Positions 10,142 through 57,415 of a stretch of DNA of 64,000 nucleotides are shown here, in pieces. Each line of letters opens with the position of its first letter. The stretch's first letter is position 1. The translations under genes and the position numbers were made by a program. The notes beneath the pieces were generated by a model. The model had not been told where the DNA came from and made no database searches. It saw nothing but the letters and a program-made list of their open reading frames with translations. The stretch comes from Gemmatimonadota bacterium (GTDB taxonomy: Bacteria; Gemmatimonadota; Gemmatimonadetes; Gemmatimonadales; GWC2-71-9), in NCBI GenBank assembly GCA_003246755.1, contig QKDC01000102.1:32804-96803 (forward strand). Direction: 5' to 3'.

Positions 10142-10148
10142 GCGCGCC

Positions 10149-30997: not shown

Positions 30998-31071
30998 GCC
31001 AACGGCGACGATCCAAGCGGTACGACCGCGGCAAAGCGCAGGAGGCGCCAGGCGAAGACGGGCAGAGAGAA

Positions 31072-32097
31072 CTATTGGATCACCAACGTGTCGGCGCGCT
31101 GCTGGATCTCGACACCGAGTGAGAGATTGAGGACGTCGATCGCGTCATCGAGCGCCTCACGCTGGAAAGTCCCGGTCAGGAGGCGTTCCCCGAGCGCCGG
31201 ATCGGCAATCAGAATGGTCATCCCATACCATCGGGACAATTCGGTGACCACCGAATCCAACCGTGCGTCGTCGAACACCATCCGGCCCTCATGCCAAGCC
31301 ACGAGGCGCCTGGCATCGGGAGCTCGCTGGACGCTGGGCCGGATGGCGCCGACCTCGAGTGTGGCAACGTCCATCGCCCCGAGCGTGGCACTTTCGGCTG
31401 CCGTGCCGGCTTCGCGTCGCAGAGACGCGCTCCCGGACACCACCACCACGCGGACCACGGATTCCTCGACCCGGGCTCGAACAGTGAACTCGGTGCCGAG
31501 ATCTTCGGTCACCGTTCCGGCCGCGTAGACACGGAACGGTCGATCGGCATCATGCGCGACCTCGAACCAAGCTTCTCCGCTGAGGTCGACCCGGCGCTCC
31601 GTCCTTCCGTAGTCGGCAGCCACGCGGAGTTCCGATCCCGCAGCGAGGGTGATTCGCGTCCCGTCGCCGAGGTTGATGGTTTCCTGTTGACCGGGGAGTG
31701 TGGCGAGAACCTGTGCGACGGCCGATGCCGAAGGGGCCATTCTGCGCAGCACGAATGTGGTACCGATGGCGAGGATGAGCATGGCGGCAAGGGCCAGGCG
31801 CCAAGTGTGGGGCGGGCGGACGAAGGAGAACACCGTCGAGGTCGGTACCTCGTCGAGGCGGGCAGCGACTCGACTCCATGCCCGGTCGACATCCCACTCG
31901 CCTGGGGTCGCCGCCGCCCATGTCGTGCGGAGGTGATCGAGCTCCGCCCGGTGAGCTGGATCGGCCTTGGCCCACGATTCGACCTCCGCTCGTTGGGCGG
32001 GCGATGCCTCCCCGGCGAGGTACCGGGCCAACAGATCGGGGTTCAGGGATTCGCTCATGGTCGTTCCACTCACAGCAGAGGTCGTACCAGTAGACAC
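31072..32097 (-). CDS. FecR-family anti-sigma factor
   Basis: N-terminal anti-sigma region, a central TM helix (WRLALAAMLILAIG), and a FecR domain. Sits upstream of the STN receptor. Confidence 0.85.
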   Translation of the reverse strand: MSTGTTSAVSGTTMSESLNPDLLARYLAGEASPAQRAEVESWAKADPAHRAELDHLRTTWAAATPGEWDVDRAWSRVAARLDEVPTSTVFSFVRPPHTWRLALAAMLILAIGTTFVLRRMAPSASAVAQVLATLPGQQETINLGDGTRITLAAGSELRVAADYGRTERRVDLSGEAWFEVAHDADRPFRVYAAGTVTEDLGTEFTVRARVEESVVRVVVVSGSASLRREAGTAAESATLGAMDVATLEVGAIRPSVQRAPDARRLVAWHEGRMVFDDARLDSVVTELSRWYGMTILIADPALGERLLTGTFQREALDDAIDVLNLSLGVEIQQRADTLVIQ

Positions 32098-32162
32098 CCC
32101 AAGGGTATCCGCCCCCTGACAGTGAACCCAGTGGTCCGTAAAATGCCGAAATTCAGGACATA

Positions 32163-32732
32163 TTGACCATGTCTACCCCTCGAGATCCCCTCCAGCCAGA
32201 GGTTCTCGCCCGCATCCGCGCGGGCGACAGGGAGGCGTTCGAACTGCTCTTCCGGGCCTGGTACCCCCGGCTCGCCGATTATGCCGCCCGTCTCCTTGCA
32301 AGCCGCGATGCCGCGGAGGACGCCGTTCAGGAGGTTTTTGTCGCCGTTTGGGGACGGCGGGAACGTCTCCCTGAGGGGACCAAACTCCCAGCCTACCTCC
32401 ACCGGGCGGTGAAGAACCGAGCGCTCAATCAGATCCGGAAATACAAGACCGCCAGCCGGTGGCTGGAGCAGGGAGACCATCAGGTGGCGGTCACCCCTGT
32501 TGGTGTGACCGACATGGAACATGAGGAATTGAACCAGGCCCTCCAGAGGGCACTCGACCAACTCTCACCGAGGGGCCGGGAGGTCTTCCAATTGAGTCGA
32601 GACCAAGGTCTCACGTATCCCCAGATTGCCGACACGCTGGGTATCTCGGTCAAGACAGTGGAGACCCTGATGAGCCGCGCGCTCAAGTCGCTCCGGGAGC
32701 AGCTCCTTCCAAGACTACAGGAAGACGGATAA
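32163..32732 (+). CDS. ECF (group IV) sigma-70 factor
   Basis: Region 2 (DAAEDAVQEVFVAVW) and region 4 (LTYPQIADTLGISVKTVETLMSRA). Divergent from fecR and the receptor. Confidence 0.9.
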   Translation: MTMSTPRDPLQPEVLARIRAGDREAFELLFRAWYPRLADYAARLLASRDAAEDAVQEVFVAVWGRRERLPEGTKLPAYLHRAVKNRALNQIRKYKTASRWLEQGDHQVAVTPVGVTDMEHEELNQALQRALDQLSPRGREVFQLSRDQGLTYPQIADTLGISVKTVETLMSRALKSLREQLLPRLQEDG

Positions 32733-36603: not shown

Positions 36604-36763
36604 GGTCGCGTCTCCAGGTAGTCAGAGCTCCCCTCGGTAACCGAGAGATAATGTACCCCTAGACGCGGCGGGTACCAGAAAGGTTGCAACCAGAGTTGGG
36701 GAGACCTTGCGCAGCCCTCCTGAGCGGCCGATTCTCTGTGACACCTCCACGGAACCGAGATTC

Positions 36764-44364: not shown

Positions 44365-45575
44365 TGAGTCAGAGGTTGTTGGGTGGGCGTGTCGCCCCGG
44401 TTCTCTTGTTCGGTGTCCTCGCGTCCATACCTCTCGCCGCGCAGTCCGCCGAGCGCACCGAGTCACCGGTTGCGGTGTCTGGGCAAGTGTTCGAAGATCG
44501 CAACGGCAACGGGGTTCGGGACGACGGCGAACCGGTCATGGCAGGGATTGCCGTGTCGGACCAGGTCCAGGTGGTGCGAACTGACACCCAGGGCAGATTC
44601 GCATTCGAGGCCGCGGGATATGGATTCGTATCCGTGGCCCAGCCCACAGGCTTCGTCGTGCGAGGCCCCTTCTGGCGGCGTGTCACGGCCGGCGAGGACA
44701 TGGCCTTTCCGCTGGTACGCATCGGCGAGTCGACCGCGTTCGATTTCCTTCACGCCTCGGACACCCACATCAGCGAGGCGTCGGTCGAACGCACAAGACG
44801 CCTTCGCACCCTTGCCGACTCGCTCAAACCAGCATTTGTACTGATCACCGGCGACCTCGTCCGCGATGCGCTTCGGGTCAATGAAGAGACCGCTCGGGGG
44901 CTCTACGAGATACTCGAACGCGAGATCGCGTTGTTCACCGTGCCGGTCTATACCGTCCCGGGCAATCACGAAATCTTCGGCATCGAGCGCGCGAGTTCAC
45001 TGGTAAGCTCCAAGCACCCCCTCTATGGCAAGCGGATGTACCGGCACTATCTCGGTCCCGACTACTACTCGTTCACCTGGGGTGGGGTGCACTTCGTGGG
45101 GCTCAACAGTGTGGACTACGATGACACCGCGTATCACGGCCACGTGGACGACCTCCAAATGAAGTGGCTCGAACGCGACCTCGCCACGATTGGCGACGAC
45201 ACACCCGTGGTCACCTTCAACCATATCCCGTTCGTGAGTACCGGCCCGGTGCTCTACGGCGTAGATGAAAACAGCGTGGCGCCCACCGTGATCGAGATCC
45301 GAGGCGTGCCCCACTTCCGACACACGGTCTACAACAAGGACCAAGTGCTCGATCTCATCGGCGACAGGCTGGCCATCGCACTCGGTGGCCATTTCCACCG
45401 TCTCGAGAGGGTGGAGTACGAAACGACACATGGGCGACGACGGATCTATCAGACGGCGGCGGTCGTGGGGCCTCCCACCGGAACCGGACCGCTCGGGAGT
45501 GTGTCGGGGGTGACCCTCTACCGGGTGCGGGATCGCATCGTCGACAACGGGACTTTCATCCGATTGGATCCTTAG
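44364..45575 (+). CDS. Metallophosphoesterase with N-terminal SdrD-B/Cna-B-like domain
   Basis: Signal peptide. VSGQVFEDRNGNGVRDDGE (SdrD-B-like). Calcineurin-like motifs HASDTHI, GDLV, GNHE. Confidence 0.8.
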   Translation: MSQRLLGGRVAPVLLFGVLASIPLAAQSAERTESPVAVSGQVFEDRNGNGVRDDGEPVMAGIAVSDQVQVVRTDTQGRFAFEAAGYGFVSVAQPTGFVVRGPFWRRVTAGEDMAFPLVRIGESTAFDFLHASDTHISEASVERTRRLRTLADSLKPAFVLITGDLVRDALRVNEETARGLYEILEREIALFTVPVYTVPGNHEIFGIERASSLVSSKHPLYGKRMYRHYLGPDYYSFTWGGVHFVGLNSVDYDDTAYHGHVDDLQMKWLERDLATIGDDTPVVTFNHIPFVSTGPVLYGVDENSVAPTVIEIRGVPHFRHTVYNKDQVLDLIGDRLAIALGGHFHRLERVEYETTHGRRRIYQTAAVVGPPTGTGPLGSVSGVTLYRVRDRIVDNGTFIRLDP

Positions 45576-47050
45576 TCCACCACGGATGGTGCGCCGGGGC
45601 GGTGTGCCGGTGCGTAGCGTTCGAGGTAGCGGTTTACCCGCACTTTGCGGGCTGTGTTCTTGGAACTCATGTACCGGACCTTCCCGAAGATTGGTCGCTC
45701 CGGACCCCATGGACGATCGTACCGCCCGAACGTCCAGAGAATGCCACTGTACGAGTTTGGGTCCTGGCCATCCAAGGCAAAGCGATCGTTCAGGGTAATC
45801 AAGACGTCGAGGGCGACTTCCGGAGACTCGGACCATTCGAGGACCTTCTTGGCCCACAGCATCCTGAGATAGTTGTGCAGTCTGCCCTCGGTACGCAGTT
45901 GAGTCTGTGCGGCGTTCCACAGGCGGTCGTGGGTGTGTCCTCCCGCGAGCTCCTCGAGGGTGTACAGGTGAGGACGAGGATCGTCGGCGTGGTCGGATAG
46001 CGTGTCACGCGCCCATGTGGGGAGGGAGGAGAAGTCCACATAGTCGTGGCGGTGCTGACACATGTTGTATCCCAGTTCCCGCCATGTCACCAGTTGGTCC
46101 ACGAAATCGGCCCCACCCTCCTGCATCCCCCAGCCAGAGCGGCTTCCACGATCTTCCGGCCGCAACTGGTCCGGGGCCCACTCCGCCCATTCCGCGACGC
46201 GCCAGAAGACGTCATGGGCGCCGATGTGCCCAGCACGCAGATAAGGAGAGAGCTCGCTCGTGGCATCCTCATCGGGGACATTCCGGTCCCGCGCATACCT
46301 CGACAGCCGCGATGTCAAGAAATGATCCAGCGCAATCGCTCCCGCTCGAGCGCCACCTCGCTGCGGGGCGACTCCCACTTCGTGGTCGATCGGCAGCGCG
46401 GTCAATGCGGTGGGTGTCGCGGCCAGGAGCTCCGGGGTGGCGGCGGGCCACCGTGCCGCGATCGCGGGAGGCACTTTACCGAGGGATGGGAGACCCAGGT
46501 CCGAGAGTGGTTCGACGAGCGGTGACTCCGCGAGGTGGTCGCCCAACTCCCGATGCAGGAGACGTCGAAAGGAATAGGCAGTGGGATAGGGTCGCTCCGG
46601 GACTCCGAGCGGAACGAGCCCATTGCTGTCCACCGCTTCGACTCGTGGGCGCATGCGAGGTTCCACATTTCCGTGCGGTCGACGGAGAAAGGCCGGCACG
46701 TCATCGGTCACCACGACCGCGGCGTGCTCGGCCAGGGCTGAGGGGAGGTCGACCCCCTCCCCGGGAGTGGGTTCCACGTAGGGGTAGTAGGTGACCTCCG
46801 TAGTGGCGAATCGGGCGGCGTTGTCGTGCATGCCCTGCAGCGTGAAGGCATGGAGGCGATCGCTGGCCCAGGGATAGGTGATCGGTAGTGTTTCCAGGAC
46901 CACCAGAGGCTTGCTGGTCGCGTGCGCCCAGTGGAGAGCTCGCTCCAAAGCGAAGTTGAATCGGCACCGCCGGGTCGCGTGCATCCAATAGAGCACAAAC
47001 TCGCCGTCACCTCGGACGGGGGTGTCGCGTACGAGTCGCACTCGGTTCAT
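45572..47050 (-). CDS. phr: Class II CPD deoxyribodipyrimidine photolyase
   Basis: ATG 47050 gives MNRVRLVRD..GEFVLYWM. The C-terminal segment GRLHNYLRMLWAKKVLEWS..LDGQDPNSYSGILWTFGRYDRPW..FGKVRYM is the class II photolyase signature. Confidence 0.88.
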   Translation of the reverse strand: MNRVRLVRDTPVRGDGEFVLYWMHATRRCRFNFALERALHWAHATSKPLVVLETLPITYPWASDRLHAFTLQGMHDNAARFATTEVTYYPYVEPTPGEGVDLPSALAEHAAVVVTDDVPAFLRRPHGNVEPRMRPRVEAVDSNGLVPLGVPERPYPTAYSFRRLLHRELGDHLAESPLVEPLSDLGLPSLGKVPPAIAARWPAATPELLAATPTALTALPIDHEVGVAPQRGGARAGAIALDHFLTSRLSRYARDRNVPDEDATSELSPYLRAGHIGAHDVFWRVAEWAEWAPDQLRPEDRGSRSGWGMQEGGADFVDQLVTWRELGYNMCQHRHDYVDFSSLPTWARDTLSDHADDPRPHLYTLEELAGGHTHDRLWNAAQTQLRTEGRLHNYLRMLWAKKVLEWSESPEVALDVLITLNDRFALDGQDPNSYSGILWTFGRYDRPWGPERPIFGKVRYMSSKNTARKVRVNRYLERYAPAHRPGAPSVVD

Positions 47051-47140
47051 TGGCACCACGGTCGACACTCCCGGCAAGACTGATCGGATGGCATGCGAGA
47101 GGGAGGTGGGACAATGCCCACCTCCTTCCCGCACCGCCGG

Positions 47141-47668
47141 TTAGAAGTTCGCTCGAAAGCCTAATCCGAAAGGCCAGACCCAGCCGGCCTTGGTACCGAG
47201 CTCAGCCTCCTTGGTGAAGGCGATATCTCCCTGGGGGCTGATCAGGAGATCGAACTGATCCGAGAGCGCGATGGCGATTTTGGCGCCCGCGTTGATCGCG
47301 GGATAGGTGAAGCTTTCTGCCAAATCTCCGCCGAATTGGACGAGGCCGCCGCCCAGGTTGACCGTCACGGTCACCTTCTCGGAGGTGTAGAGATCGTAGC
47401 CGACCTTCCCCATCAAGTGGTAGGTGTTGATCTTCCCGGTTTCACCCTTGATGCCATGGTAGCCGACATCCCCGTCGACCATGAGGCGGATCCGGTCGCT
47501 CGCGAGATAGCCCAACCCTGCACCGAATCCAGGGCCGACTTCGGCGGCATCGGCGATCCCGAAGGTTGGCACCACGGCCACGCCGCGCGCCTCAAGGCTG
47601 AACTGCGCCTCTGCCGGACTGGCCAGCAGGGCGAAGAGTGCCAGGACTGGCAAGGACTTCTTGATCAT
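47141..47668 (-). CDS. Small outer-membrane beta-barrel protein
   Basis: ATG 47668 is preceded by AAGGAG. Signal peptide MIKKSLPVLALFALLASPAEA, alternating beta-strand pattern, and a C-terminal ..GFRANF (terminal Phe). Confidence 0.75.
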   Translation of the reverse strand: MIKKSLPVLALFALLASPAEAQFSLEARGVAVVPTFGIADAAEVGPGFGAGLGYLASDRIRLMVDGDVGYHGIKGETGKINTYHLMGKVGYDLYTSEKVTVTVNLGGGLVQFGGDLAESFTYPAINAGAKIAIALSDQFDLLISPQGDIAFTKEAELGTKAGWVWPFGLGFRANF

Positions 47669-47708
47669 ATTCCCGTTCTCCTTTGAACTCGAGTGAATCA
47701 CGACAGAA

Positions 47709-47726
47709 ACGTGGCAAACGCCACGT
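47709..47726 (-). promoter_or_regulatory. Perfect inverted repeat in the predicted 5' UTR of the OM-barrel/photolyase operon
   Basis: ACGTGGC-aaac-GCCACGT (7-bp arms) containing the CACGTG palindrome. Lies between the predicted -10 (47758-47763) and the start codon at 47668. Confidence 0.4.
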
Positions 47727-47757
47727 GGGACCGGCCCATCTGCCGTTTCCCGAGGGC

Positions 47758-47786
47758 AGAATACACAACCGGAGCTTGTTTGTCAA
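47758..47786 (-). promoter_or_regulatory. Predicted sigma-70 promoter for the OM-barrel/photolyase operon
   Basis: On the minus strand: TTGACA (47786-47781), 17-nt spacer, TATTCT (47763-47758). Confidence 0.55.
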
Positions 47787-47797
47787 GCGTTTGTCTA
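47776..47797 (-). promoter_or_regulatory. Two tandem 11-bp direct repeats (candidate CarH/LitR operator)
   Basis: Minus strand TAGACAAACGC (47797-47787) followed by TTGACAAACAA (47786-47776). The second repeat is the -35 of the minus-strand promoter and both lie in the spacer of the plus-strand promoter. Confidence 0.5.
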
Positions 47798-47804
47798 GTA
47801 TTCT
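47776..47804 (+). promoter_or_regulatory. Predicted promoter for the SDR/DUF2867 gene
   Basis: TTGTTT (47776-47781), 17 nt, TATTCT (47799-47804). An alternative is TTGTCT (47791), 16 nt, TATTCT (47813). ATG at 47832. Confidence 0.4.
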
Positions 47805-47831
47805 ATTGGACATATTCTCTACAAAGGTGTC

Positions 47832-49310
47832 ATGAGCAACCAGAACAGCGCGCGACGAGTGTTGGTGACGGGGGCCTCAGGCTATGTGGGCGGGCGACTT
47901 GCCCCGCGCCTCGCGGCGGCGGGGTTCGGGGTCCGGTGCTTAGCCCGGCGGCCGGAGGAACTGGCGCACCGGATGCCGGGCGGTGTCGAAGTGGTCGGCG
48001 GTGACCTGCGGGACCCCGCAGCCGCACGATCGGCGCTCGAGGGGGTGGAAAGCGCCTTTTATCTCGTGCACTCGATGGGGCGCTCCGAGCACTTCGCGTC
48101 TGAGGAGGCCGCGATGGCCACCACATTTGCCGAGGCGGCGAGGGACTCGGGTGTTCGACGTATCATCTACCTCGGCGGGCTTGGGGCTGACGGTCGGCTC
48201 TCCCCGCACCTCGCATCACGCCAACGCGTCGGGGAGTTGTTACGGGCCTCAGGTGTGCCAACCATCGAATTCCGGGCGTCGATCGTCATTGGATCCGGGA
48301 GCCTGTCGTTCGAGATGATTCGCTCGCTGGTCGAGCGGCTTCCGGTCATGGTGACCCCCCGATGGGTGAGCAAGAAGGCCCAGCCGATCGGGATCGAAGA
48401 CTTGCTGCAGTATCTGATAGCCGCGCTCGCCCTCGAGGGGTCCACGTCCGGGGTGTTCGAGATTGGGGGAAAGGACCAGGTGTCCTACCGTGACCTGCTC
48501 CTCGAATATGCTCGGCAGCGAGGGCTGCACCGCGTCATGATACCGGTACCGGTGCTGACGCCGCGTCTGTCCAGTCTCTGGCTCGCTCTCGTGACACCCG
48601 TGTACGCCAGGGTCGGGCGCCAGTTGGTCGATTCGATTCAGCACGATACCGTGGTAACCGACGAGCGAGCTCTTGCCGTTTTCCCCCTTCGACCCGCGGG
48701 CATGAGTGCTGCCATCGCCCGTGCCTTGGCCAATGAGGATCGCGAGTTTGCGGAGACGCGGTGGTCGGATGCCTTCTCATCCTCGGGGTTGTCGATGCAC
48801 TACGGTGGGGTCTCTCTCCACCGCCGCATTATCGACTCCCGGGCCATCAACGTTCCCGTTCCACCAGCTGTTGCTTTTCGACCCATCGAGCGCATCGGCG
48901 GAGCCAATGGGTGGTACTTCGCCGACTCGGTCTGGACACTCCGGGGTTGGCTCGACCTTCTCGCCGGTGGTGTTGGGATGCGCCGAGGCCGACGCGATCC
49001 CGAACAACTCGTGCCGGGAGATGCCGTGGACTGGTGGCGCGTGGAGGCCGTGGATCGCGGCGTCCGTCTCCGACTCCGGGCGGAGATGAAACTGCCCGGA
49101 CGTGCATGGTTGCAGTTCGATGTCGAAAGAGCGGAAGGGGGGAGTGTGGTCCGTCAGACGGCCCTCTTCGACCCGCGGGGCTTGCTGGGGCTCCTCTATT
49201 GGTATGCCCTCTACCCAATTCACGTGATCATCTTCCGAGGCATGCTGCGCGAGATTCAGCTGCGGGCTATCGCGCTGGCCTCGTCGACCAACTCCACAAC
49301 TTCGGTCTAG
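47832..49310 (+). CDS. Atypical SDR/NmrA-like NAD(P)-binding protein with C-terminal DUF2867-like domain
   Basis: Rossmann motif VLVTGASGYVGGRL. A ~200-aa C-terminal extension typical of SDR-DUF2867 fusions. Confidence 0.8.
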   Translation: MSNQNSARRVLVTGASGYVGGRLAPRLAAAGFGVRCLARRPEELAHRMPGGVEVVGGDLRDPAAARSALEGVESAFYLVHSMGRSEHFASEEAAMATTFAEAARDSGVRRIIYLGGLGADGRLSPHLASRQRVGELLRASGVPTIEFRASIVIGSGSLSFEMIRSLVERLPVMVTPRWVSKKAQPIGIEDLLQYLIAALALEGSTSGVFEIGGKDQVSYRDLLLEYARQRGLHRVMIPVPVLTPRLSSLWLALVTPVYARVGRQLVDSIQHDTVVTDERALAVFPLRPAGMSAAIARALANEDREFAETRWSDAFSSSGLSMHYGGVSLHRRIIDSRAINVPVPPAVAFRPIERIGGANGWYFADSVWTLRGWLDLLAGGVGMRRGRRDPEQLVPGDAVDWWRVEAVDRGVRLRLRAEMKLPGRAWLQFDVERAEGGSVVRQTALFDPRGLLGLLYWYALYPIHVIIFRGMLREIQLRAIALASSTNSTTSV

Positions 49311-50245
49311 GCGCTGACGACCAGGGCTTGGAGCACGGCTCTCAGGCTCGGCACGTCTCTCACCCATACCCCTCGAAGCTGGCGGATCGTCTCTTCGTAC
49401 GTCTGCGAAGCTTGTCCTCCCACGAGAAGTGCCACCCCCTCCCCGAGGAGTTGACCTAAGTGCATCAACTCGTCCCGGATATTCGGCGCCGTGGTCGTGA
49501 TACTGACCGCCACGGCGCGGGCGCGGGTGGCCTCGGCGACGCGGGCGATTTCCTGCGCTGGCAGGTCGCCCGAGAGGAACATGGTTCGCCAACCCTCCAA
49601 TGCCGCGACTGCGGTTACCAGGAGCGCACCCAATTCATGTCGCTGCTGAGCTGGAGTCGCGACGAGGATCAGTGGCGCCTCGTCTCCGGGTTGCAGGGTT
49701 TCCGTGAGACGCATGAGTGTCTGTCGGAGTAGCCCAGAGGCTAGGTGTTCGTAGCCCGCTGACATCTCCCCGGTATCCCAGAGTCGGCCGATCTCATACA
49801 TCAATGGGCGAGCGACGGACTCGAGGAACACCAAGGGTGGCAGGGCACTACAGGCCCGTTCGAGCCCCAGGCGCAAACGCTTCGGATCACAGGCGGTCGC
49901 CGCACCCACGACCTCTCGCAGATATGGGGTGGCGTCGTGCTCGTCAGTGCGCCCTGTCGCTGGAGTGCGGGTGCCTTCTGCCGCGCGATCCTCCGCCACG
50001 AGTTGCTGGAGTTCGGGGAGCCCCAGTCGGGCGACCTGCCCCACCCGGCGTCCAGCACCGATCGCCAACCGGATCAGGCGGAGCCGCTCCACGTCGAGAT
50101 CCGAGTACCGGCGCCGACCCGTCGTGCTCCGACCTGGGGTAACCGCCTCATAACGGCGTTCCCACGCGCGCAGGACGTCGGCCGTCAATCCCGCTCGGCG
50201 GGCCACGACCTGAATCGGGTGGCGGGGCTCGGTGGAGAATTCCAT
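49307..50245 (-). CDS. carH: MerR-HTH plus cobalamin-binding light-responsive regulator (CarH/LitR family)
   Basis: ATG 50245 gives [38 protein letters not shown] (MerR HTH). Helical bundle with W-x9-E-H ([12 protein letters not shown]). Rossmann B12 signature QRHELG..x41..SIT..x26..GG. Confidence 0.85.
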
Positions 50246-50255
50246 TTCAGAGGAC

Positions 50256-50284
50256 AAACTAGAGAAACGTACACCCTTTGTCAA
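50256..50284 (-). promoter_or_regulatory. Predicted promoter of the carH-like gene (near-leaderless)
   Basis: Minus strand TTGACA (50284-50279), 17 nt, TAGTTT (50261-50256). The ATG is only 10 nt after the -10. Confidence 0.5.
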
Positions 50285-50294
50285 ATATTGGTCT

Positions 50295-50316
50295 TTGACA
50301 AAACCTTGACAACATG
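50295..50316 (+). promoter_or_regulatory. Two tandem 11-bp direct repeats plus an inverted third copy (candidate CarH/LitR operator)
   Basis: TTGACAAAACC (50295-50305) followed by TTGACAACATG (50306-50316). An inverted copy, TTTGTCAAA, is at 50277-50285, and GACAAAC at 50253-50259. Confidence 0.55.
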
Positions 50317-50334
50317 GCATTCACTCGATATAAT
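50306..50334 (+). promoter_or_regulatory. Consensus sigma-70 promoter for the fasciclin/lipid-modification operon
   Basis: TTGACA (50306-50311), exactly 17 nt, TATAAT (50329-50334). Both hexamers match consensus perfectly in a GC-rich genome. AAAGGAG Shine-Dalgarno at 50401 before ATG 50414. Confidence 0.65.
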
Positions 50335-50413
50335 CATCGACAGGTGCTGGACAAGCTGTCTTTTCGAGCAACCGTGCTCAACATGTCGTTCAACCTCGGA
50401 AAAGGAGTTCACC

Positions 50414-50917
50414 ATGTTTCGTGCTGTCATCCCCGCTGTCGCCCTCGCTGCTCTGGGGTTTGCACCCCAGGCCGCCGTTGCCCAGACCAAGGCTCCGGCG
50501 CCGGATATCGTTGAGATTGCCGCATCTGCCGGCACCTTCAACACGCTGGTCGCCGCGGTCAAGGCCGCTGGCCTGGTCGATGTACTGAAGAGCGATGGCC
50601 CGTTCACGGTCTTTGCCCCGACCGATGAGGCGTTCGCCAAGCTCCCGGCGGGCACCGTCGAGAGTCTCCTCCTGCCGGAGAACCTCGAGCAGTTGAAGGC
50701 CGTGCTGACCTATCACGTTGTAGCCGGAAAAGTGCTCGCCAAGGATGTGGTCGGGCTCAAGACCGCCAAGACGGTGCAGGGGCAGTCGCTGACGGTCAAG
50801 ATCATGAATGGGGTACCGATGGTCGATAACGCCCAGGTGATCAAGACCGACATCATGGCCAAGAATGGCGTGATTCACGTGATCGATCAGGTCGTGTTGC
50901 CCAAGACCAACAAGTAG
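50414..50917 (+). CDS. Secreted fasciclin (FAS1) domain protein
   Basis: Signal peptide [26 protein letters not shown]1 motifs [10 protein letters not shown] and [13 protein letters not shown]. The track ORF 49937..50917 is trimmed to the ATG preceded by a Shine-Dalgarno. Confidence 0.88.
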
Positions 50918-51040
50918 TTTCCAGGGCCGCCTGCGGTGGACCGCCCTTCTCTGGTCCATCGCAGGTAGGTTCCCTCCAACTCGATATCGCCCCTCCGCTT
51001 GGGATGCGATGTCACCTGATGCACTGAGGAGACGGTGAGC

Positions 51041-51928
51041 ATGGGTTGGATCTCTCGGGTGGCCAAGTCGTTTGTCTTGTGGTTCGACACGCATGCCGTT
51101 GCTCCGGACACGATGTTGGCCAAGGACGTGGTGGACTGGTACCGCGTGATCCCCTTCATCGCCGTGCACGTGGCCTGTCTCGGTGTGATCTGGGTGGGAT
51201 GGAGCTGGACAGCGGTCGCAATCGCGGCGGGTCTCTACGCCGTGCGCATGTTCGCCATTACGGGGTTCTACCACCGGTACTTTTCACACCGCACCTTCCA
51301 GACCTCTCGCCTGACGCAATTCATCTTCGCCCTCCTGGGTGCCAGCTCGGCTCAGCGGGGTCCGCTCTGGTGGGCTGCCCATCATCGAAAGCACCACAGA
51401 CACTCGGACACCGAGCTCGATGTGCACTCCCCTGGGCAGCATGGCTTCTGGTGGAGTCACATGGGGTGGATCACGGCGCCGGGCAACTTCCCCACGGACC
51501 TGAACGAGGTGCGGGATCTCGCGAAGTATCCCGAACTACGCTTCCTGGATCGTTTCGATATCCTGGTTCCGGCCGCACTGGCCGCGACCCTGTTCCTGCT
51601 GGGCGGTGCGCAGTGGCTGATCTGGGGATTCTTCGTGAGCACCGTTGTGTTGTTCCACTGTACCTGCTTCATCAACTCGCTGGCACATCAACTCGGGACG
51701 CAACGCTACGATACCGGCGACCACAGCCGCAACAGCTTCTTGTTGGCCCTCGTCACCTTCGGGGAGGGGTGGCACAACAACCACCACAAGTATCCCGGGG
51801 CAGCACGTCAGGGATTCTTCTGGTGGGAAATCGATCTCACCTACTACGGTCTCTGGCTACTGGCGCGGCTGAGAATCATCTCCGATCTGCGGGGGGTGCC
51901 ACACCGTCTCCTCCAAGCACGCTCCTGA
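51041..51928 (+). CDS. Membrane acyl-lipid/acyl-CoA fatty acid desaturase (three-His-box)
   Basis: His boxes HRYFSHR, HRKHHRHSD and HNNHHKYP. ATG 51041 follows GAGGAG; the track start GTG 51035 is also possible. Confidence 0.88.
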   Translation: MGWISRVAKSFVLWFDTHAVAPDTMLAKDVVDWYRVIPFIAVHVACLGVIWVGWSWTAVAIAAGLYAVRMFAITGFYHRYFSHRTFQTSRLTQFIFALLGASSAQRGPLWWAAHHRKHHRHSDTELDVHSPGQHGFWWSHMGWITAPGNFPTDLNEVRDLAKYPELRFLDRFDILVPAALAATLFLLGGAQWLIWGFFVSTVVLFHCTCFINSLAHQLGTQRYDTGDHSRNSFLLALVTFGEGWHNNHHKYPGAARQGFFWWEIDLTYYGLWLLARLRIISDLRGVPHRLLQARS

Positions 51929-53157
51929 TGCGGATTGCGATCGTGGGGAGTGGGGTATCGGGCCTGATCGCGGGGTACCTGTTGTACCCCATGCATGACG
52001 TGACCGTGTTCGAGGCCGATTCGAGGATCGGTGGCCACGTCAACACGATCCCGGTGACGATCGACGGGAATGTCTGGCCCGTGGATACAGGATTCATTGT
52101 CTACAACGAACGCAACTACCCCCTCTTCACCAGGCTGCTGGCGCGACTCGGTGTCGAGACCCAGGCGTCTTCCATGGGGTTCAGCGTCCGCTGTGCCAGC
52201 ACGGGACTGGAGTACAACGGGTCGAGTCTTCGACAGCTGTTTGTCCAACCTCACAATCTCTTGCGCCCGCGATTCTATCGCATGCTGCGGGACATCCTCC
52301 GCTTCAATCGCGAGGCCCCGCGGGACGTGGCCGGCGGGACCGCAGCGACCATTCTGGGCGACTACCTGCAGGCTGGGGGGTATGGGCGGGAGGTGAGGGA
52401 CCACTACCTCGTCCCCATGGGCTCCGCATTGTGGTCGATGCCGCGGAAGAGCGTCACCGAGATGCCGACAGCGTTCTTCGTGCGGTTCTTCGAGCAACAC
52501 GGAATGCTCACCGTGGATGATCGACCCGAATGGCGCGTCGTGACCGGGGGCTCGGACCGCTACGTGAAGGCTCTGACCGCCGGATTCGGCGAGGCGATTC
52601 GCACCCGGTCACCCGTGCACGAGATTCGTCGCGCAATAGACCATGTTCGGGTGAATGGCGAGCGCTTCGATCAGGTGATTCTCGCCTGCCATGCCGATCA
52701 GGCTTTGGAAATGCTGGCGGATCCGTCACCCGCCGAAAGCGAGATTCTCGGGAGCTTCCCCTATCAACACAACGAGGCACTGCTCCACACCGATACCTCA
52801 ATACTTCCCAGCCGATCGCGTGCGTGGGGCGCCTGGAACTACTACCTCCGTGGTGATGCTGAGTCGGCTGCGACCGTGACCTATGACATGAACATCCTCC
52901 AGACCCTCTCCGCCCCCGAGACGTTCTGCGTGTCGCTCAACGCCGAGGACATCGTCGATCCGGCAAGGGTGTTGCACCGGGTGGCGTACACCCATCCCCA
53001 ATACACTGCCAAGGGACACGCAGCACAGGCACGTCGCGCCGAAATCAGCGGCCGAAGGTGCACGCATTACTGTGGCGCCTACTGGGGGTTTGGATTTCAT
53101 GAGGATGGTGTGCGGAGCGGGGTCGAGGCAGCGAAAGGGTTCGGGGCAGACCTGTGA
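51928..53157 (+). CDS. NAD/FAD-binding oxidoreductase (amine-oxidase/COG2907-like)
   Basis: MRIAIVGSGVSGLIAGYLL..VFEADSRIGGH dinucleotide-binding motif. The ATG overlaps the desaturase stop (TGATG). The N-terminal part of track ORF 51046..53157 is an out-of-context extension. Confidence 0.85.
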   Translation: MRIAIVGSGVSGLIAGYLLYPMHDVTVFEADSRIGGHVNTIPVTIDGNVWPVDTGFIVYNERNYPLFTRLLARLGVETQASSMGFSVRCASTGLEYNGSSLRQLFVQPHNLLRPRFYRMLRDILRFNREAPRDVAGGTAATILGDYLQAGGYGREVRDHYLVPMGSALWSMPRKSVTEMPTAFFVRFFEQHGMLTVDDRPEWRVVTGGSDRYVKALTAGFGEAIRTRSPVHEIRRAIDHVRVNGERFDQVILACHADQALEMLADPSPAESEILGSFPYQHNEALLHTDTSILPSRSRAWGAWNYYLRGDAESAATVTYDMNILQTLSAPETFCVSLNAEDIVDPARVLHRVAYTHPQYTAKGHAAQARRAEISGRRCTHYCGAYWGFGFHEDGVRSGVEAAKGFGADL

Positions 53158-53912
53158 AAAGTCGACTCTACATCGGAGCCGTCCGACACCGTCGGTTTCA
53201 CCCAGTGCCCCACGCATTCCGCTACCCCCTCTTCATGCTCTATCTGGACCTGGCGGAACTCCCCGTGGTGTTCGACGGGCGCTGGCTCTGGTCGGCCAGA
53301 CGCCCCGCTCCAGCCTGGTTTCGCCGAGCCGACTACCTCGGCGACGCAGCCGTACCGCTGGCCGACGCGGTGCGCAATACCGTATCGGCACATGGGGGCA
53401 AGCCACCCACCGGACCGATCCGGATGCTCACCCACCTCCGGTACTTCGGGTACGTACAGAACCCGGTCACCCTCTACTACTGCTTCGACACGGACGACCG
53501 TTCCGTCGATACGATCGTGGCGGAGATCACCAACACCCCGTGGGGTGAGCGGCACGCCTATGTCCTGACGCGCGAGGACAATCTGGGGAAGAACGGAGTG
53601 CAGCGGTTCCGGTTCGAGAAGGCATTCCATGTCTCCCCGTTCATGGCCATGGATCACCAGTATGATTGGCGGTTCAACGAACCGGGACGACGGCTGGTGG
53701 TACATATGGAAAACCGTCAGGCCGGCTCGAAGATCTTCGACGCCACCTTGGCGTTACGACGGGAGGCAATGACGGGTCGTGCGCTGGCGTCCGCGCTCGC
53801 GCGCTATCCCTGGATCACGGCGCGGGTAGCCCTGGGGATCTACTGGCAAGCACTGCGGTTGGGGATCAAGCGGGTCCCCTTCCACACGCATCCACGAAAG
53901 CAGGTTACATGA
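53154..53912 (+). CDS. DUF1365 family protein
   Basis: MKSRLYIGAVRHRRFHPVPHAFRYPLFMLYLDLAEL is the characteristic DUF1365 N-terminus. GTGA overlap with the upstream stop. Confidence 0.85.
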   Translation: MKSRLYIGAVRHRRFHPVPHAFRYPLFMLYLDLAELPVVFDGRWLWSARRPAPAWFRRADYLGDAAVPLADAVRNTVSAHGGKPPTGPIRMLTHLRYFGYVQNPVTLYYCFDTDDRSVDTIVAEITNTPWGERHAYVLTREDNLGKNGVQRFRFEKAFHVSPFMAMDHQYDWRFNEPGRRLVVHMENRQAGSKIFDATLALRREAMTGRALASALARYPWITARVALGIYWQALRLGIKRVPFHTHPRKQVT

Positions 53913-55144
53913 GATTGCTCCAGGAGCTCACGGAAAGGGCAGTCCGTCAACGCTTGCACCGATTGACACATGGAAGACTCACACTCAACTACGAGACTTC
54001 CACCACGGTCTTCGGTCAGGGCAACGGTCCGGCGGTCAGTGTGACAGTCCACGACTCCGCCTTCTTCACCGCACTCGCCTTCGGAGGGCACCTCGGTGCC
54101 GCCGAGGCCTACATCGACGGGGCATGGGAAACCGACGACCTCACCAGTTTGGTACAGCTCTTTCTCAAGAACCGCGATGTCCTCGACGGACTGGAGCGGG
54201 GGTGGGCCCGTCTCGTGCAACCGGTGCGGAAAGCACTCCACGCGTTGAGCCGAAACTCCCGGTCCGGGAGTCGTCGTAACATTCGGGCACACTACGACCT
54301 CGGCAACGAGTTCTTCGCACTCTTCCTCGACGACACGCTCACCTACTCCTGCGGCGTCTTCGAGCACGAGAGCAGCACCATGCGGGACGCCTCCGTGGCC
54401 AAGTACGACCGGCTCTGTCGCAAGCTGGAGTTGTCGCCGGAAGATCATGTTCTGGAAATCGGCACCGGGTGGGCCGGTTTCGCCGTACACGCGGCGAGTA
54501 CGTATGGTTGCCGGCTTACGACCACGACGATCTCCGAGCAACAGTATCAACTTGCGATCAAGCGCGTCGCCGACGCCGGACTCACGGATCAGGTCACCGT
54601 CCTGCGGCAAGATTACCGCGACCTCGAGGGTAGCTTCGACAAACTCGTCTCCATCGAGATGATCGAGGCGGTCGGGCATCAATACTTCGACACCTACTTT
54701 GCACAGTGCGCGCGCCTCCTCAAGCCGCATGGTCTCGCGGCGATCCAGGCGATCACCATCCAGGACCGGTACTACGATTCCGCGCGTCGCGAGGTGGACT
54801 TCATCAAGCGCTACATTTTTCCGGGCAGCTGCATTCCCGCCGTGTCCGTCCTGGCGGCATCGGCCGCGCGTACCGATCTCCGGTTGGTGCACCTCGATGA
54901 CATCACACCCCACTACGCCGAGACACTCCGGCTCTGGCGGAACCGATTCGTCGCGAACTGGGACCGCATCAAGGCCTTAGGGTTCTCGGCTGAATTCAAA
55001 CGACTCTGGGAGTTCTACTTCTGCTACTGCGAAGGCGGATTCCGCGAAGCCGTGCTGGGTGACGTGCAACTGCTGTTCGCCAAGCCCGCCGCGCGTCCTG
55101 CACTGGCAAGGCCTGGAGCCACATCGGTGGTCACCCCCGCATGA
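53909..55144 (+). CDS. Cyclopropane-fatty-acyl-phospholipid synthase family SAM methyltransferase
   Basis: CMAS family: HYDLGNEFFALFLD, SAM motif VLEIGTGWAGFA, C-terminal FYFCYCEGGF. ATGA overlap with DUF1365. Confidence 0.9.
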   Translation: MRLLQELTERAVRQRLHRLTHGRLTLNYETSTTVFGQGNGPAVSVTVHDSAFFTALAFGGHLGAAEAYIDGAWETDDLTSLVQLFLKNRDVLDGLERGWARLVQPVRKALHALSRNSRSGSRRNIRAHYDLGNEFFALFLDDTLTYSCGVFEHESSTMRDASVAKYDRLCRKLELSPEDHVLEIGTGWAGFAVHAASTYGCRLTTTTISEQQYQLAIKRVADAGLTDQVTVLRQDYRDLEGSFDKLVSIEMIEAVGHQYFDTYFAQCARLLKPHGLAAIQAITIQDRYYDSARREVDFIKRYIFPGSCIPAVSVLAASAARTDLRLVHLDDITPHYAETLRLWRNRFVANWDRIKALGFSAEFKRLWEFYFCYCEGGFREAVLGDVQLLFAKPAARPALARPGATSVVTPA

Positions 55145-55911
55145 TATCACTCGTCCTCATCGGGTGGGCGGTGCTCGCGGTCGCCCTCGGCCTGCTCTGG
55201 GCCCGTCAGTTGGTCACTAAGAATGCCACCAGTGTCGACGTTGCCTGGTCGGGTGGACTGGCATTTCTGGCTGGGTACTACGCGTGGTTCGCCGAGGGCG
55301 ACACCACCCGCCGGGCGCTGGTGGGAACCCTCGCCGGACTCTGGGCCCTGCGACTGGCATGGCATCTCCTGAGTGATCGTGTGTTGCGACACACGGAGGA
55401 AGACGGTCGCTATCGCGCGCTTCGGGCGGAGTGGGGGTCGCGTGCCGGACGGAACTTCTTCTTCTTCTACCAAGCCCAGGCGGCAGTGGCCGTGCTGTTT
55501 TCCCTCCCCATCCTCGCGGCGATGCGCGGAGGAGCCGTGGATACACTCGCCTGGGCTGGGGTGTTGATATGGTTCGTTGCCGTCGGTGGCGAGACGTTGG
55601 CCGACCACCAACTCGCGCGTTTCAGGGCTGATCCGACGAACCGGGGTCACGTCTGTCAGACGGGTCTTTGGCGCTACTCGCGACACCCGAACTACTTCTT
55701 CGAGTGGGTCCACTGGTGGGCCTACGTTGTGATTGGCACAGGCGCCTGGCTCACCTGGACCGGTCCTGTGCTGATGCTCCTCTTTCTCTTTCGACTCACC
55801 GGGATCCCTTACACCGAACAGCAGGCGCTCCGCAGTCGAGGGGACCGCTATCGCGAGTATCAGCGCACCACGAGCGTGTTCATCCCCTGGTTCCCCCGGA
55901 AGTCGTCGTGA
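55141..55911 (+). CDS. DUF1295 family membrane protein (steroid-reductase/ICMT-like fold)
   Basis: Multi-TM protein with GLWRYSRHPNYFFEWVHWW. ATGA overlap with the upstream gene. Confidence 0.85.
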   Translation: MISLVLIGWAVLAVALGLLWARQLVTKNATSVDVAWSGGLAFLAGYYAWFAEGDTTRRALVGTLAGLWALRLAWHLLSDRVLRHTEEDGRYRALRAEWGSRAGRNFFFFYQAQAAVAVLFSLPILAAMRGGAVDTLAWAGVLIWFVAVGGETLADHQLARFRADPTNRGHVCQTGLWRYSRHPNYFFEWVHWWAYVVIGTGAWLTWTGPVLMLLFLFRLTGIPYTEQQALRSRGDRYREYQRTTSVFIPWFPRKSS

Positions 55912-56954
55912 GTCCCGCACTCGGTGTTGCCTTGGCCGAACGCGGACTGGTGCCGCTTCCTGGGCTTCGGCTCGGTATCCGTCGACTTCTGGTCGAGCGG
56001 CTTCGGGAGCAAGCCGGGGCGCCCGGTATCGAAGACTTTCTCCGCGAACTCGAACGCGCTCCGATTGCGCTCCAGCCGGAGAAGGCCAACCAACAGCATT
56101 ACGAAGTGCCGCCGGCGTTCTTCGAACTCGTGCTCGGCCCACATCTCAAGTACAGCGGCGCCTACTGGCCCGAGGGGACTCGGGACCTCGGGGAGGCAGA
56201 AGCTCGCATGCTCGCCCTGACGTGTGAGCGTGCCGAGCTTGCCGATGGTCAAGCCATCCTGGAGTTGGGTTGCGGATGGGGATCACTGACGCTGTACATG
56301 GCCCGGCAGTTCCCGGCGAGTCGGATCGTCGCGGTATCCAACTCTGCCCCGCAACGACGGTTCATCGAGGCTCGGGCACCAGACAACGTCGAAGTCATCA
56401 CCGCCGATATGAACACATTTGCGACGGATCGCCGGTTCGACCGTGTGGTGAGCGTCGAAATGTTCGAGCACATGCGGAACCATCGCGAATTGCTGCGGCG
56501 CATTGCAGGGTGGCTCGGCGAGGATGGCAGGCTCTTCGTGCATGTGTTCTGCCATCACACATACGCCTACCTGTTCGAGACTGACGGCGAACACGACTGG
56601 ATGGGCCGGTTTTTCTTCACCGCCGGTCTCATGCCGTCCTATGACATGCTGCCTCGGATCGATGGCGACCTCGAACTCGACGCGCGGTGGCCCGTGAACG
56701 GTATTCACTACGCCAGGACGGCTGCGGCGTGGCGAATCAATCTCGAGAGACGTCGTCTGGAGGTAATGCACGTGTTGCGGGACACCTACGGAGGCGACGC
56801 CGAGCGTTGGTACCACCGTTGGCGACTCTTCTTCCTTGCCTGCGAGGAGCTGTTCGCCTATCACGACGGTGAGGAGTGGTTCGTAGGCCACTACCGTTTT
56901 CGGCCGCGCCTGCAACCCGAGTGTGGCCAGAGCACCCAGCCCGCTGATCCATGA
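55908..56954 (+). CDS. Second CMAS-family SAM-dependent methyltransferase
   Basis: GTG 55908 (GTGA overlap). ANQQHYEVPPAFFELVLGPHLKYSGAYW, SAM motif ILELGCGWGSLTLYMA, C-terminal WRLFFLACEELF. Confidence 0.85.
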   Translation: MSPALGVALAERGLVPLPGLRLGIRRLLVERLREQAGAPGIEDFLRELERAPIALQPEKANQQHYEVPPAFFELVLGPHLKYSGAYWPEGTRDLGEAEARMLALTCERAELADGQAILELGCGWGSLTLYMARQFPASRIVAVSNSAPQRRFIEARAPDNVEVITADMNTFATDRRFDRVVSVEMFEHMRNHRELLRRIAGWLGEDGRLFVHVFCHHTYAYLFETDGEHDWMGRFFFTAGLMPSYDMLPRIDGDLELDARWPVNGIHYARTAAAWRINLERRRLEVMHVLRDTYGGDAERWYHRWRLFFLACEELFAYHDGEEWFVGHYRFRPRLQPECGQSTQPADP

Positions 56955-57415
56955 CCTCAAACCTGCTCGAGCGTCGACAAGTGCTTCCCGCGCCCCTGGA
57001 AGAAGTGTTCGCCTTCTTCAAGGACCCGCTCAACCTGAGCATCATCACCCCGCCATGGCTCAATTTTCGTGTGCGCCGGATGACCGATCCGGTCGTGCGA
57101 CGTGGAACCAGGATCGGCTATGACATCAGGTGGATGGGCTTGCCCATGCGATGGGAGTCGGTCATCGCCGAGTACATCGAAGGGGAGCGGTTTGCCGACG
57201 AGATGATTCGAGGACCCTACACCCACTGGTATCATCTCCACTCCTTCCGCCGCGTGCCGAATGGCACCGAAGTGGGCGACCGGGTGGATTACGAACTACC
57301 GCTCGGCCCGGTCGGGAGGCTGGCACACCGTGTTCTGGTCCGCCGGCAACTCGAAGGGATCTTCGACTTCCGCAGGCGCCGATTGGAAAAGATCTTCCCG
57401 AAAGATCCGGGATAG
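56951..57415 (+). CDS. SRPBCC (START/cyclase-dehydrase-like) lipid-binding family protein
   Basis: 154 aa with VFAFFKDPLNLSIITPPWLNF..GPYTHWYHLHSF, typical of the COG4276-type SRPBCC. ATGA overlap with the upstream gene. Confidence 0.75.
   Translation: MTSNLLERRQVLPAPLEEVFAFFKDPLNLSIITPPWLNFRVRRMTDPVVRRGTRIGYDIRWMGLPMRWESVIAEYIEGERFADEMIRGPYTHWYHLHSFRRVPNGTEVGDRVDYELPLGPVGRLAHRVLVRRQLEGIFDFRRRRLEKIFPKDPG

Follow-up and report, generated by a model that had tools for sequence, protein, structure and literature searches.

A candidate B12-dependent CarH-type light switch over a photolyase and lipid-modification gene cluster in Gemmatimonadota

In a 64-kb stretch of DNA from a Gemmatimonadota bacterium (GenBank assembly GCA_003246755.1, contig QKDC01000102.1, positions 32,804 to 96,803 of the forward strand), here called the window and numbered from its first letter, twelve contiguous genes (45572-57415) include one for a CarH/LitR-type regulator with a MerR DNA-binding domain and cobalamin-binding domains. 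Our analysis leads to a model, to which we assign a probability of about 0.75, in which this regulator, loaded with adenosylcobalamin (AdoCbl), represses the whole cluster in the dark and light relieves the repression. The original prediction, made from the letters of the window, had described a photolyase and membrane-lipid island centered on a B12 photoreceptor, and the families, strands, and coordinates that it gave for the twelve genes agree with our Pfam assignments and, for the photolyase, with matches in the Protein Data Bank (PDB) and NCBIfam (Table 1).

The model predicts that, in the dark, AdoCbl-loaded CarH oligomers, probably tetramers, would sit on arrays of 11-bp TnGACA repeats (O1, 47781-47823; O2 array, 50268-50353) and mask the -35 box of each of four promoters, which lie in two bidirectional control regions. 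Four units would then be off: the outer-membrane protein (OMP)-photolyase pair; the gene for a short-chain dehydrogenase/reductase (SDR) fused to DUF2867; carH itself; and the series fasciclin-desaturase-UfaD-UfaO-methyltransferase-DUF1295-FufM-like-SRPBCC. Light would cleave the Co-C bond, whereupon the oligomer would disassemble and come off the DNA, with joint derepression of the twelve genes. The predicted products are a light-driven DNA repair enzyme, the envelope proteins fasciclin and OMP, and lipid enzymes that would act on the cis-unsaturated acyl chains of phospholipids and turn them into furan fatty acids, methylated and probably dimethyl, that scavenge singlet oxygen.

The regulator carries, in order, the Pfam domains MerR_1 (PF13411, E 2.5e-14), B12-binding_2, and B12-binding (i.e., a MerR helix-turn-helix, a bundle of four helices, and a B12 domain of Rossmann type), and its nearest solved relatives by sequence are the LitR/CarH proteins of T. 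thermophilus, matched in both domains at E 1e-20. The regulator alignment was scanned against species-representative genomes, which yielded at least 590 relatives; 80 loci (L001-L080) were kept, motifs were counted in 82 open reading frames (ORFs) of the subfamily, and 26 homologues were aligned. The RxWERRY recognition helix of the MerR-type domain, which belongs to the definition of class I CarH/LitR (PMC9304148), reads RAWERRY in the regulator, and RxWExRY is found in all 82 ORFs. Similarly, the Wx9EH motif, which separates AdoCbl-dependent CarH from CarA (PMC9304148), is intact in the regulator and present in 76 of the 82, and its Trp and Glu-His (W156, E166, H167), together with the axial His and the GG, are invariant in the alignment. 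The B12 motif reads QRHELG-x41-SIT-x25-GG, its His, Gly, Ser, and GG being in register with D/E-x-H-x2-G-x41-S-x-T/V-x22-27-GG. Domain order, RxWERRY, Wx9EH, axial His, and SxT...GG are shared with the T. thermophilus CarH/LitR and with the CarH proteins of M. xanthus and B. megaterium. In addition, the top 50 PDB fold matches of the AlphaFold2 (AF2) model of the regulator (predicted local distance difference test score, pLDDT, 93.8) are all T. thermophilus CarH (TtCarH)/LitR structures, and its cobalamin-binding domain superposes on them (5c8a, 8c31) with template modeling (TM) scores of 0.80-0.85 at 2.4-3.0 Å. Judged by sequence and modeled fold, the regulator has the features of class I, AdoCbl-dependent CarH/LitR proteins apart from a Gln in place of Asp/Glu in the B12 motif, and it would bind AdoCbl and undergo light-triggered release. 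Its identity to characterized CarH/LitR is about 27%, and it belongs to a distant subfamily and is not an equivalog of the curated CarH set. Altogether, the CarH/LitR assignment of the original prediction holds in domains, motifs, best PDB and NCBIfam match, and AF2 fold, with a CarH score below the equivalog cut-off.

In both intergenic control regions of the cluster, TnGACA (read on the opposite strand as TGTCNA) recurs as an 11-bp direct repeat, a unit that fits the published CarH repeat nnnnTnnACAn with its 11-bp period and its overlap with the -35 box (PMC8156234, PMC9304148). In operator O1, one perfect pair lies opposite one pair with a single mismatch, and operator O2 spans the -35 boxes of both the carH and the fasciclin-lipid promoter. 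The -35 boxes at 47781-47786, 50279-50284, and 50306-50311 lie under TnGACA repeats, and the two strongest sigma-70 matches of the region (12/12 and 10/12) have their -35 hexamers within repeats. Tandem 11-bp direct repeats, which CarH operators have over a -35 or -10 box, are present here over -35 boxes, in a number and an orientation unlike those of characterized operators. The earlier claim of one common repeat at every promoter is borne out by the paired motif in both control regions and by the CarH-type 11-bp repeat over the -35 boxes.

When the window was searched for TGTCNA-N5-TGTCNA with at most one mismatch, six matches were found, four of them in the two intergenic regions (47781-47797, 47807-47823, 50295-50311, and 50337-50353); the remaining two, at 18137 (mutS) and 27431 (a beta-CASP gene), have one mismatch, are intragenic, and are at chance level (~1.1 per shuffle). 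The stricter motif TTGTCNA-N4-TTGTCNA has 3 matches against 0.12 expected. All four TTGTCAA heptamers of the window fall in the two control regions, and this total is not enriched over the 3.5 expected; only the paired and positional statistics are informative, not the overall count. The TTGACA-17-TAnnnT arrangement of the carH promoter was also recognized by eye in six orthologous loci (L001, L003, L005, L006, L031, and L049). Since the -10 box is only 10 nt from the ATG, the carH mRNA is probably leaderless or near-leaderless, a trait that the orthologues share.

From 51041 to 57415, each of the seven genes shares 4 bp with the next, and the seven therefore form one translationally coupled operon. 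Public gene calls (JGI metagenome 3300027987) give the same starts for carH, fasciclin (ATG 50414), desaturase (ATG 51041), and SDR. Between the fasciclin stop and the desaturase start lies a strong hairpin (50930-50965, + strand), the stem of which is 15 bp long and is not followed by a U tract, and the 126-nt stretch that contains it folds at -56.6 kcal/mol (z -3.15). This hairpin may act as a partial terminator or as an mRNA stabilizer, setting the expression of fasciclin and of the lipid genes apart. We considered the 117-bp fasciclin-desaturase gap as an extra promoter or operator and rejected it, as it holds no repeat and no promoter match, only the hairpin.

Linkage and operator are conserved across phyla. 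The 80 loci span at least eight phyla (Gemmatimonadota, Acidobacteriota, Latescibacterota, Ignavibacteria, Verrucomicrobiota, Methylococcales, Zixibacteria, Calditrichota, and others), and the neighborhood comparison found the repeat-pair motif upstream of carH in 66 of them. Its density is 5.15 per kb within 300 bp upstream of carH versus 0.069 per kb elsewhere, a 75-fold difference. Across the 80 loci, the offsets of convergent pairs peak at 26-27 bp (21 cases) and, for the outer pair, at 69 bp. Same-strand pairs have their main peaks at 11 and 42 bp, with 14 cases each, and smaller ones at about 32 and 53 bp; the same-strand peaks are consistent with helical phasing. No divergent pair arrangement occurs among the 80 loci. 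The fixed offsets suggest binding on the same face of the DNA, possibly by two cooperating oligomers.

Operators were assigned to genes through tblastn-anchored gene starts and conservative operon chaining with the strict motif. Repeat matches distant from carH precede genes for fasciclin, OMP, SDR, photolyase (phr), and desaturase. The partner most often present within 10 kb of carH is fasciclin (27 of the 80 loci), followed by SRPBCC (21/80), SDR-DUF2867 (20/80), class II photolyase (18/80), and the lipid genes (8-11/80). By operon chaining, the operator governs fasciclin in 21 of 27 cases, the fasciclin gene being mostly divergent from carH and sharing its operator, the OMP gene in all three related loci that carry one, and the lipid genes, present in 8-11 loci, in 7-8 of these. 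The complete lipid operon stands beside carH in Gemmatimonadota (L001, L004, L005, L006, and L066) and Acidobacteriota (L052), and in Latescibacterota (L013, L016, L017, and L020) it lies directly downstream of carH and co-directional with it. In eight other loci (L009, L011, L029, L036, L042, L047, L053, and L061), carH is flanked by crtI-family genes, some in two copies, that score above the TIGR02734 cut-off, and these neighbors tie the subfamily to the classical carotenoid role of CarH in other lineages. Further recurrent neighbors are YbgA/DUF1722 (12 loci), the photolyase-related protein DPRP (5 loci), the glycosylase Fpg (4), and a DinB-type polymerase (4), which point to a wider light/UV damage regulon. 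Because its recurrent neighbors are related to light and UV, the subfamily behaves as a light-stress regulator whose regulon content varies by lineage.

The steps to furan fatty acids in Cereibacter (Rhodobacter) sphaeroides and R. palustris are carried out by UfaM, an S-adenosylmethionine (SAM) methylase, UfaD, a flavin adenine dinucleotide (FAD) desaturase, and UfaO, a DUF1365 protein that uses O2, with FufM adding the dimethyl form (PMC7380195). The singlet-oxygen and furan-fatty-acid effector set named by the original prediction was recovered here at the domain level (PMC7380195), and the DUF1365 and FAD amine-oxidase-family genes of the window overlap (PF07103, PF01593), as a UfaO/UfaD pair at that level. 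The first methyltransferase (53909-55144) matches E. coli Cfa (6bqc) at E 1e-54 and scores below the NCBIfam Cfa equivalog cut-offs. The second (55908-56954) shares only 25% identity with the first and matches plant coclaurine N-methyltransferase (6gkv) at E 4e-65 versus E 6e-25 for synthases of cyclopropane fatty acids (CFA); the earlier label of a second CMAS is right as to the CMAS methyltransferase family, with the correction that the enzyme is not a second CFA synthase. Arabidopsis AT4G33110, which we take to be annotated as coclaurine-N-methyltransferase-like, provides an indirect link from this enzyme to FufM. The FufM protein is 37.9% identical to AT4G33110/LIME1 (PMC10940516), and for these reasons the second methyltransferase is, by sequence, best read as FufM-like. 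The operon appears to code for homologues of all four furan-fatty-acid enzymes, and the desaturase could supply the cis-monoene substrate. Taken alone, a furan fatty acid as the predicted chemical identity of the operon product has about an even chance.

Two points weigh against a furan product: the orthology of both methyltransferases to UfaM and FufM is an indirect comparison, and the Cfa-like RSP1089, which lies within the ufaD-ufaO operon of R. sphaeroides, is dispensable for furan fatty acids there, as are the other extra genes of that operon, RSP1088 and RSP1087 (PMC7380195). We hold an alternative to be possible without favoring it, in which the regulator works as proposed but the operon makes cyclopropane, methyl-branched, or conjugated-diene chains, or modifies some other lipid (for instance, a hopanoid, sterol-like lipid, or quinone), with other roles for DUF1365, DUF1295, and SRPBCC. 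Such a product would agree with the dispensability of RSP1087-RSP1089, and it would also suit the first methyltransferase, which scores best against true CFA synthases (6bqc; NCBIfam Cfa models), the resemblance of DUF1295 to steroid 5-alpha-reductase and isoprenylcysteine carboxyl methyltransferase (ICMT), and the FAD enzyme, for which the best solved match is LkcE, a polyketide amine oxidase. It fits less well with the translational coupling of homologues of the four furan activities (methylase, FAD desaturase, DUF1365, and coclaurine-N-methyltransferase-like methylase) in one operon, with a lipid gene order kept in three phyla, and with the contiguity of ufaD-ufaO-ufaM in R. palustris (PMC7380195).

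Several observations count against the light-switch model itself. CarH (NF052513) tops the NCBIfam models of the regulator with only 99.7 bits against an equivalog cut-off of 400. The residue two before the axial His, classically Asp or Glu, is Gln in 71 of the 82 subfamily members, the regulator included (Glu in 7), and His132, which in TtCarH follows the Trp and becomes the light-state upper ligand, is replaced by Asp in the regulator. The layout of inverted pairs plus a phased third pair departs from the 3-4 tandem repeats of characterized CarH operators. With the strict motif, the operator could be chained to the photolyase in only 10 of 18 loci and to the SDR in only 13 of 20. As to the supply of AdoCbl, neither a cobalamin riboswitch nor any gene for making, importing, or adenosylating cobalamin was found in the window. 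For this protein and this lineage, the model is drawn from sequence and structure prediction.

The Gln-x-His variant, the absent His, the low CarH score, and the want of B12 genes nearby would all agree with a cobalamin-binding MerR sensor of B12 availability or redox, or with a B12-independent CarA-like repressor, either of which would respond to a signal other than light. We regard this as improbable, given that Wx9EH, the marker of AdoCbl dependence (PMC9304148), is intact in 76 of the 82 members, that the associated targets are related to light (two photolyase types, YbgA, crtI, and the singlet-oxygen gene set), and that the modeled fold of the cobalamin-binding domain agrees with dark-state CarH. 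Less probable still is that the regulator works by remodeling promoter DNA, as an activator of the classical MerR type. The DNA-binding domain is of the MerR family, and the O1 and O2 pairs do form an overall inverted repeat; however, the promoters have optimal 17-bp spacers and hexamers of 12/12 and 10/12, whereas MerR activators need spacers of 19-20 bp, the sites lie on the -35 boxes and the +1 region and not on the spacer, and the half-sites have the 11-bp direct-repeat form seen with CarH repressors (PMC8156234). From the near-consensus 17-bp-spacer promoters and the site positions, we infer repression rather than activation, and the light dependence is likewise predicted. That the motif is a mere sigma-70 -35 hexamer (TTGACA, the -35 consensus) in AT-rich intergenic DNA, with a coincidental clustering of genes, is barely credible despite the unenriched TTGTCAA total, as the repeats form 11-bp tandem pairs, one of them downstream of a -10 box, keep a fixed geometry over the 80 loci (26-27, 42, and 69 bp; never divergent), are enriched 75-fold upstream of carH, and find no paired counterpart in the other intergenic regions of the window.

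Returning to the light-switch model, we note that the system shares with the characterized class I CarH/LitR proteins the fold, the TnnACA 11-bp repeats on -35 boxes, a (here predicted) autoregulation, and, in some subfamily members, crtI neighbors. It differs from them in the Gln for Asp/Glu, the missing His after Trp, and the ~27% identity, in an operator built of inverted tandem pairs with a helically phased extra pair instead of 3-4 tandem repeats, and in its targets, which are photolyase and lipid-modifying genes here and carotenoid genes there. These variant details can be joined into a bolder reading, which we put forward tentatively and consider rather unlikely to hold in full: a Gln-x-His subfamily of CarH with a distinct operator grammar, in which two inverted tandem-repeat pairs would engage the four DNA-binding domains of a tetramer and a helically phased pair would be auxiliary, and through which light would directly switch on the synthesis of dimethyl furan fatty acids and of a secreted fasciclin. 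If true, this would be the first furan-fatty-acid production controlled by a photoreceptor instead of by singlet-oxygen sensing, and fasciclin would be a core component of bacterial photoprotection.

The proteobacterial Halomonas PhrR is reportedly a B12-binding, light-responsive MerR-family regulator of a non-phototroph, and its reconstructed regulon is said to center on photolyase and photoprotective genes, not carotenoids, with targets that emphasize folate and ubiquinone biosynthesis. The existence of this protein, in Halomonas sp. HL-48, and of the paper on it (Romine et al. 2017, PNAS) is attested through a citation in PMC9068703. Class II LitR of Pseudomonas, which is B12-independent, governs clusters of photolyase, ufaM, SDR, and FAD-oxidoreductase genes (PMC9758184), and the merR-phr operon of V. 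cholerae contributes to its blue-light response (PMC5241685). With the class II, III, and IV systems of Pseudomonas, Burkholderia, and Vibrio, the cluster has in common a LitR/CarH-family MerR gene beside a light-induced set of photolyase, short-chain dehydrogenase, FAD oxidoreductase, ufaM (CFA-synthase-like), and hypothetical genes (PMC9758184, PMC5241685). Those regulators lack the Rossmann B12 domain, which is present here, and light is sensed through a partner LOV protein or by other means; their clusters hold a class I PhrB photolyase, and no desaturase, FufM-like, or fasciclin gene has been reported in them, whereas the cluster in the window has a class II photolyase and all three.

With the RpoE-ChrR regulon and furan pathway of Cereibacter sphaeroides and R. 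palustris, the cluster shares the effector families of photolyase, UfaD, UfaO, and Cfa-like and FufM-type methylases (PMC7380195). The input there is a singlet-oxygen-responsive sigma/anti-sigma pair of the extracytoplasmic function (ECF) type, in contrast to the DNA-binding photoreceptor predicted here, and the genes are scattered over several loci, in contrast to one cluster here with a delta-9-type desaturase and SRPBCC in addition. As the original prediction had it, no rpoE-chrR pair is adjacent and carotenoid genes are absent: neither a ChrR-type anti-sigma nor a carotenoid gene was found in the window, and its sole ECF sigma gene (32163-32732) pairs with FecR and a TonB-dependent receptor. 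That neighborhood (28643-32732), with its FecI-type ECF sigma, FecR anti-sigma, and STN-domain TonB-dependent receptor, is a cell-surface signaling unit unrelated to RpoE-ChrR.

With this system, a known type of light switch is extended to phyla that have been little studied, and the mechanism is not new; what varies is the operator layout, the Gln-x-His motif, and the regulon content, with a FufM-containing lipid operon and with fasciclin as the most conserved target. LitR-family control of phr/ufaM clusters is published (PMC9758184), a precedent to which the original prediction had itself pointed for phr/cfa-type genes, and the novelty in its view was to that extent overrated. The B12-dependent PhrR of Halomonas, too, reportedly ties an AdoCbl sensor to genes of the photolyase type. 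Among the papers that our literature search covered, none connects CarH/LitR with Gemmatimonadota, fasciclin, or DUF1365. The cluster offers a concrete light regulon for Gemmatimonadota and neighboring phyla, which are abundant in soils and sediments and hardly studied experimentally, and it suggests that the alphaproteobacterial singlet-oxygen effector set has come, in other lineages, under the direct control of a B12 photoreceptor; under such control, cells would anticipate photo-oxidative damage instead of reacting to it. The sharing of a co-regulated unit with furan-fatty-acid enzymes narrows the likely roles of DUF1295, SDR-DUF2867, SRPBCC, fasciclin, and the small OMP. The operator-repressor pair, with its 12/12 promoter, could serve synthetic biology as a green-light switch.

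Table 1. Genes, promoters, and operator elements of the cluster, in order of position in the window, with examples of neighbors in related loci
Feature	Position	Strand	Basis and remarks
Class II CPD (cyclobutane pyrimidine dimer) photolyase	45572-47053	-	No Pfam; PDB and TIGR00591; lies second in the OMP-phr unit
Small outer-membrane beta-barrel protein with signal peptide	47141-47671	-	PF13505 OMP_b-brl, E 2.7e-8
OMP-photolyase promoter, TTGACA-17-TATTCT	47758-47786	-	10/12 consensus; -35 box is the first repeat of O1
Operator O1	47781-47823	both	Tandem 11-bp pair TGTCAAgcgttTGTCTA (+ strand) facing opposite-strand pair TGTAGAgaataTGTCCA, 26 bp start to start
Putative SDR-DUF2867 promoter, TTGTCT-16-TATTCT	47791-47818	+	13 nt before ATG; read from the letters, under the scan threshold
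Atypical SDR (NmrA/NAD_binding_10) fused to DUF2867, 492 aa	47832-49310	+	Pfam
CarH/LitR class I regulator, 312 aa	49307-50245	-	MerR_1, B12-binding_2, and B12-binding; motifs; fold
carH promoter, TTGACA-17-TAGTTT	50256-50284	-	10 nt from -10 box to ATG
Operator O2	50268-50311	both	Degenerate pair cGTACAcccttTGTCAA (+ strand) facing perfect pair TGTCAAggtttTGTCAA (- strand), 27 bp start to start
Fasciclin-lipid promoter, TTGACA-17-TATAAT	50306-50334	+	12/12 consensus, best in region
Third repeat pair TGTCCAgcaccTGTCGA, perfect	50337-50353	-	Just 3' of the -10 box; offset by 42 bp from the 50295 pair
Secreted fasciclin-domain protein, 167 aa	50414-50917	+	PF02469, E 5e-40
Membrane acyl desaturase, stearoyl-CoA (delta-9) type, 295 aa	51041-51928	+	PF00487 FA_desaturase; best PDB match SCD1 4ymk, E 5e-25
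FAD amine-oxidase-family enzyme, UfaD-like	51925-53157	+	PF01593, E 1e-22; LkcE best PDB match, E 1e-34
DUF1365 protein, UfaO-like	53154-53912	+	PF07103, E 1e-84
CFA-synthase-family methyltransferase, Cfa/UfaM-like	53909-55144	+	PF02353, E 5e-83; E. coli Cfa 6bqc
DUF1295 membrane protein, steroid-reductase/ICMT-like	55141-55911	+	PF06966, E 5e-68
Coclaurine-N-methyltransferase-like methyltransferase, FufM-like	55908-56954	+	6gkv versus Cfa
SRPBCC lipid-binding-fold protein	56951-57415	+	PF10604 and PF03364
Examples of YbgA (DUF1722 and 2-thiouracil desulfurase domain)/DPRP/Fpg/DinB-type neighbors	L052 15812-16780; L034 16066-18150; L029 17191-18081; L080 12502-13641		Related loci

The Pfam search of the photolyase found no domain. 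Its protein aligns end to end with class II CPD enzymes (M. mazei 2xry, E 4e-71; rice 3umv, E 3e-55) versus E 6e-4 for class I (1tez), with the 8oet/2xry match at ~1e-71 covering residues 4-484. The best NCBIfam model is TIGR00591 phr2 at 340 bits, under its cut-off, and the ORF could extend upstream to a GTG at 47134. A perfect 18-nt palindrome, ACGTGGCAAACGCCACGT, lies at 47709-47726, within the 5' leader predicted for the OMP-photolyase transcript, and the fold of this leader is unremarkable (z -1.6); the palindrome may form an RNA hairpin or serve as a second protein-binding site. Fasciclin, which the original prediction had listed among the extra genes, is indeed present and is not an unexplained extra, since it is the commonest partner of the carH subfamily and since, in Azospirillum, RpoE-ChrR controls a protein of this kind according to Dubey 2021 as cited in PMC10949492, the only precedent found.

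The GC content of the cluster equals that of its flanks, and therefore the "island" is here a gene cluster and not a horizontally acquired island; horizontal acquisition was considered, and the composition profile offers no support for it. The rest of the window is housekeeping in character, with RNase P RNA, dnaN, dnaA, yidC, mnmE, mutS, MacB-type ABC systems, PadR, and Ser/Thr kinases. RNase P RNA, dnaN, dnaA, yidC, and mnmE are grouped (2756-3139, 4827-7565, and 8441-11477), and the window therefore adjoins a probable chromosomal replication origin; the coarse GC-skew profile of the window has no clear switch. The kinase gene at 57531-60122 lies directly 3' of the lipid operon and has no operator upstream. 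It is one of three Ser/Thr protein kinase genes in the window (the others at 79-2724 and 36707-39535), two of which encode PD40 (TolB-like) beta-propeller repeats and one tetratricopeptide repeats (TPR).

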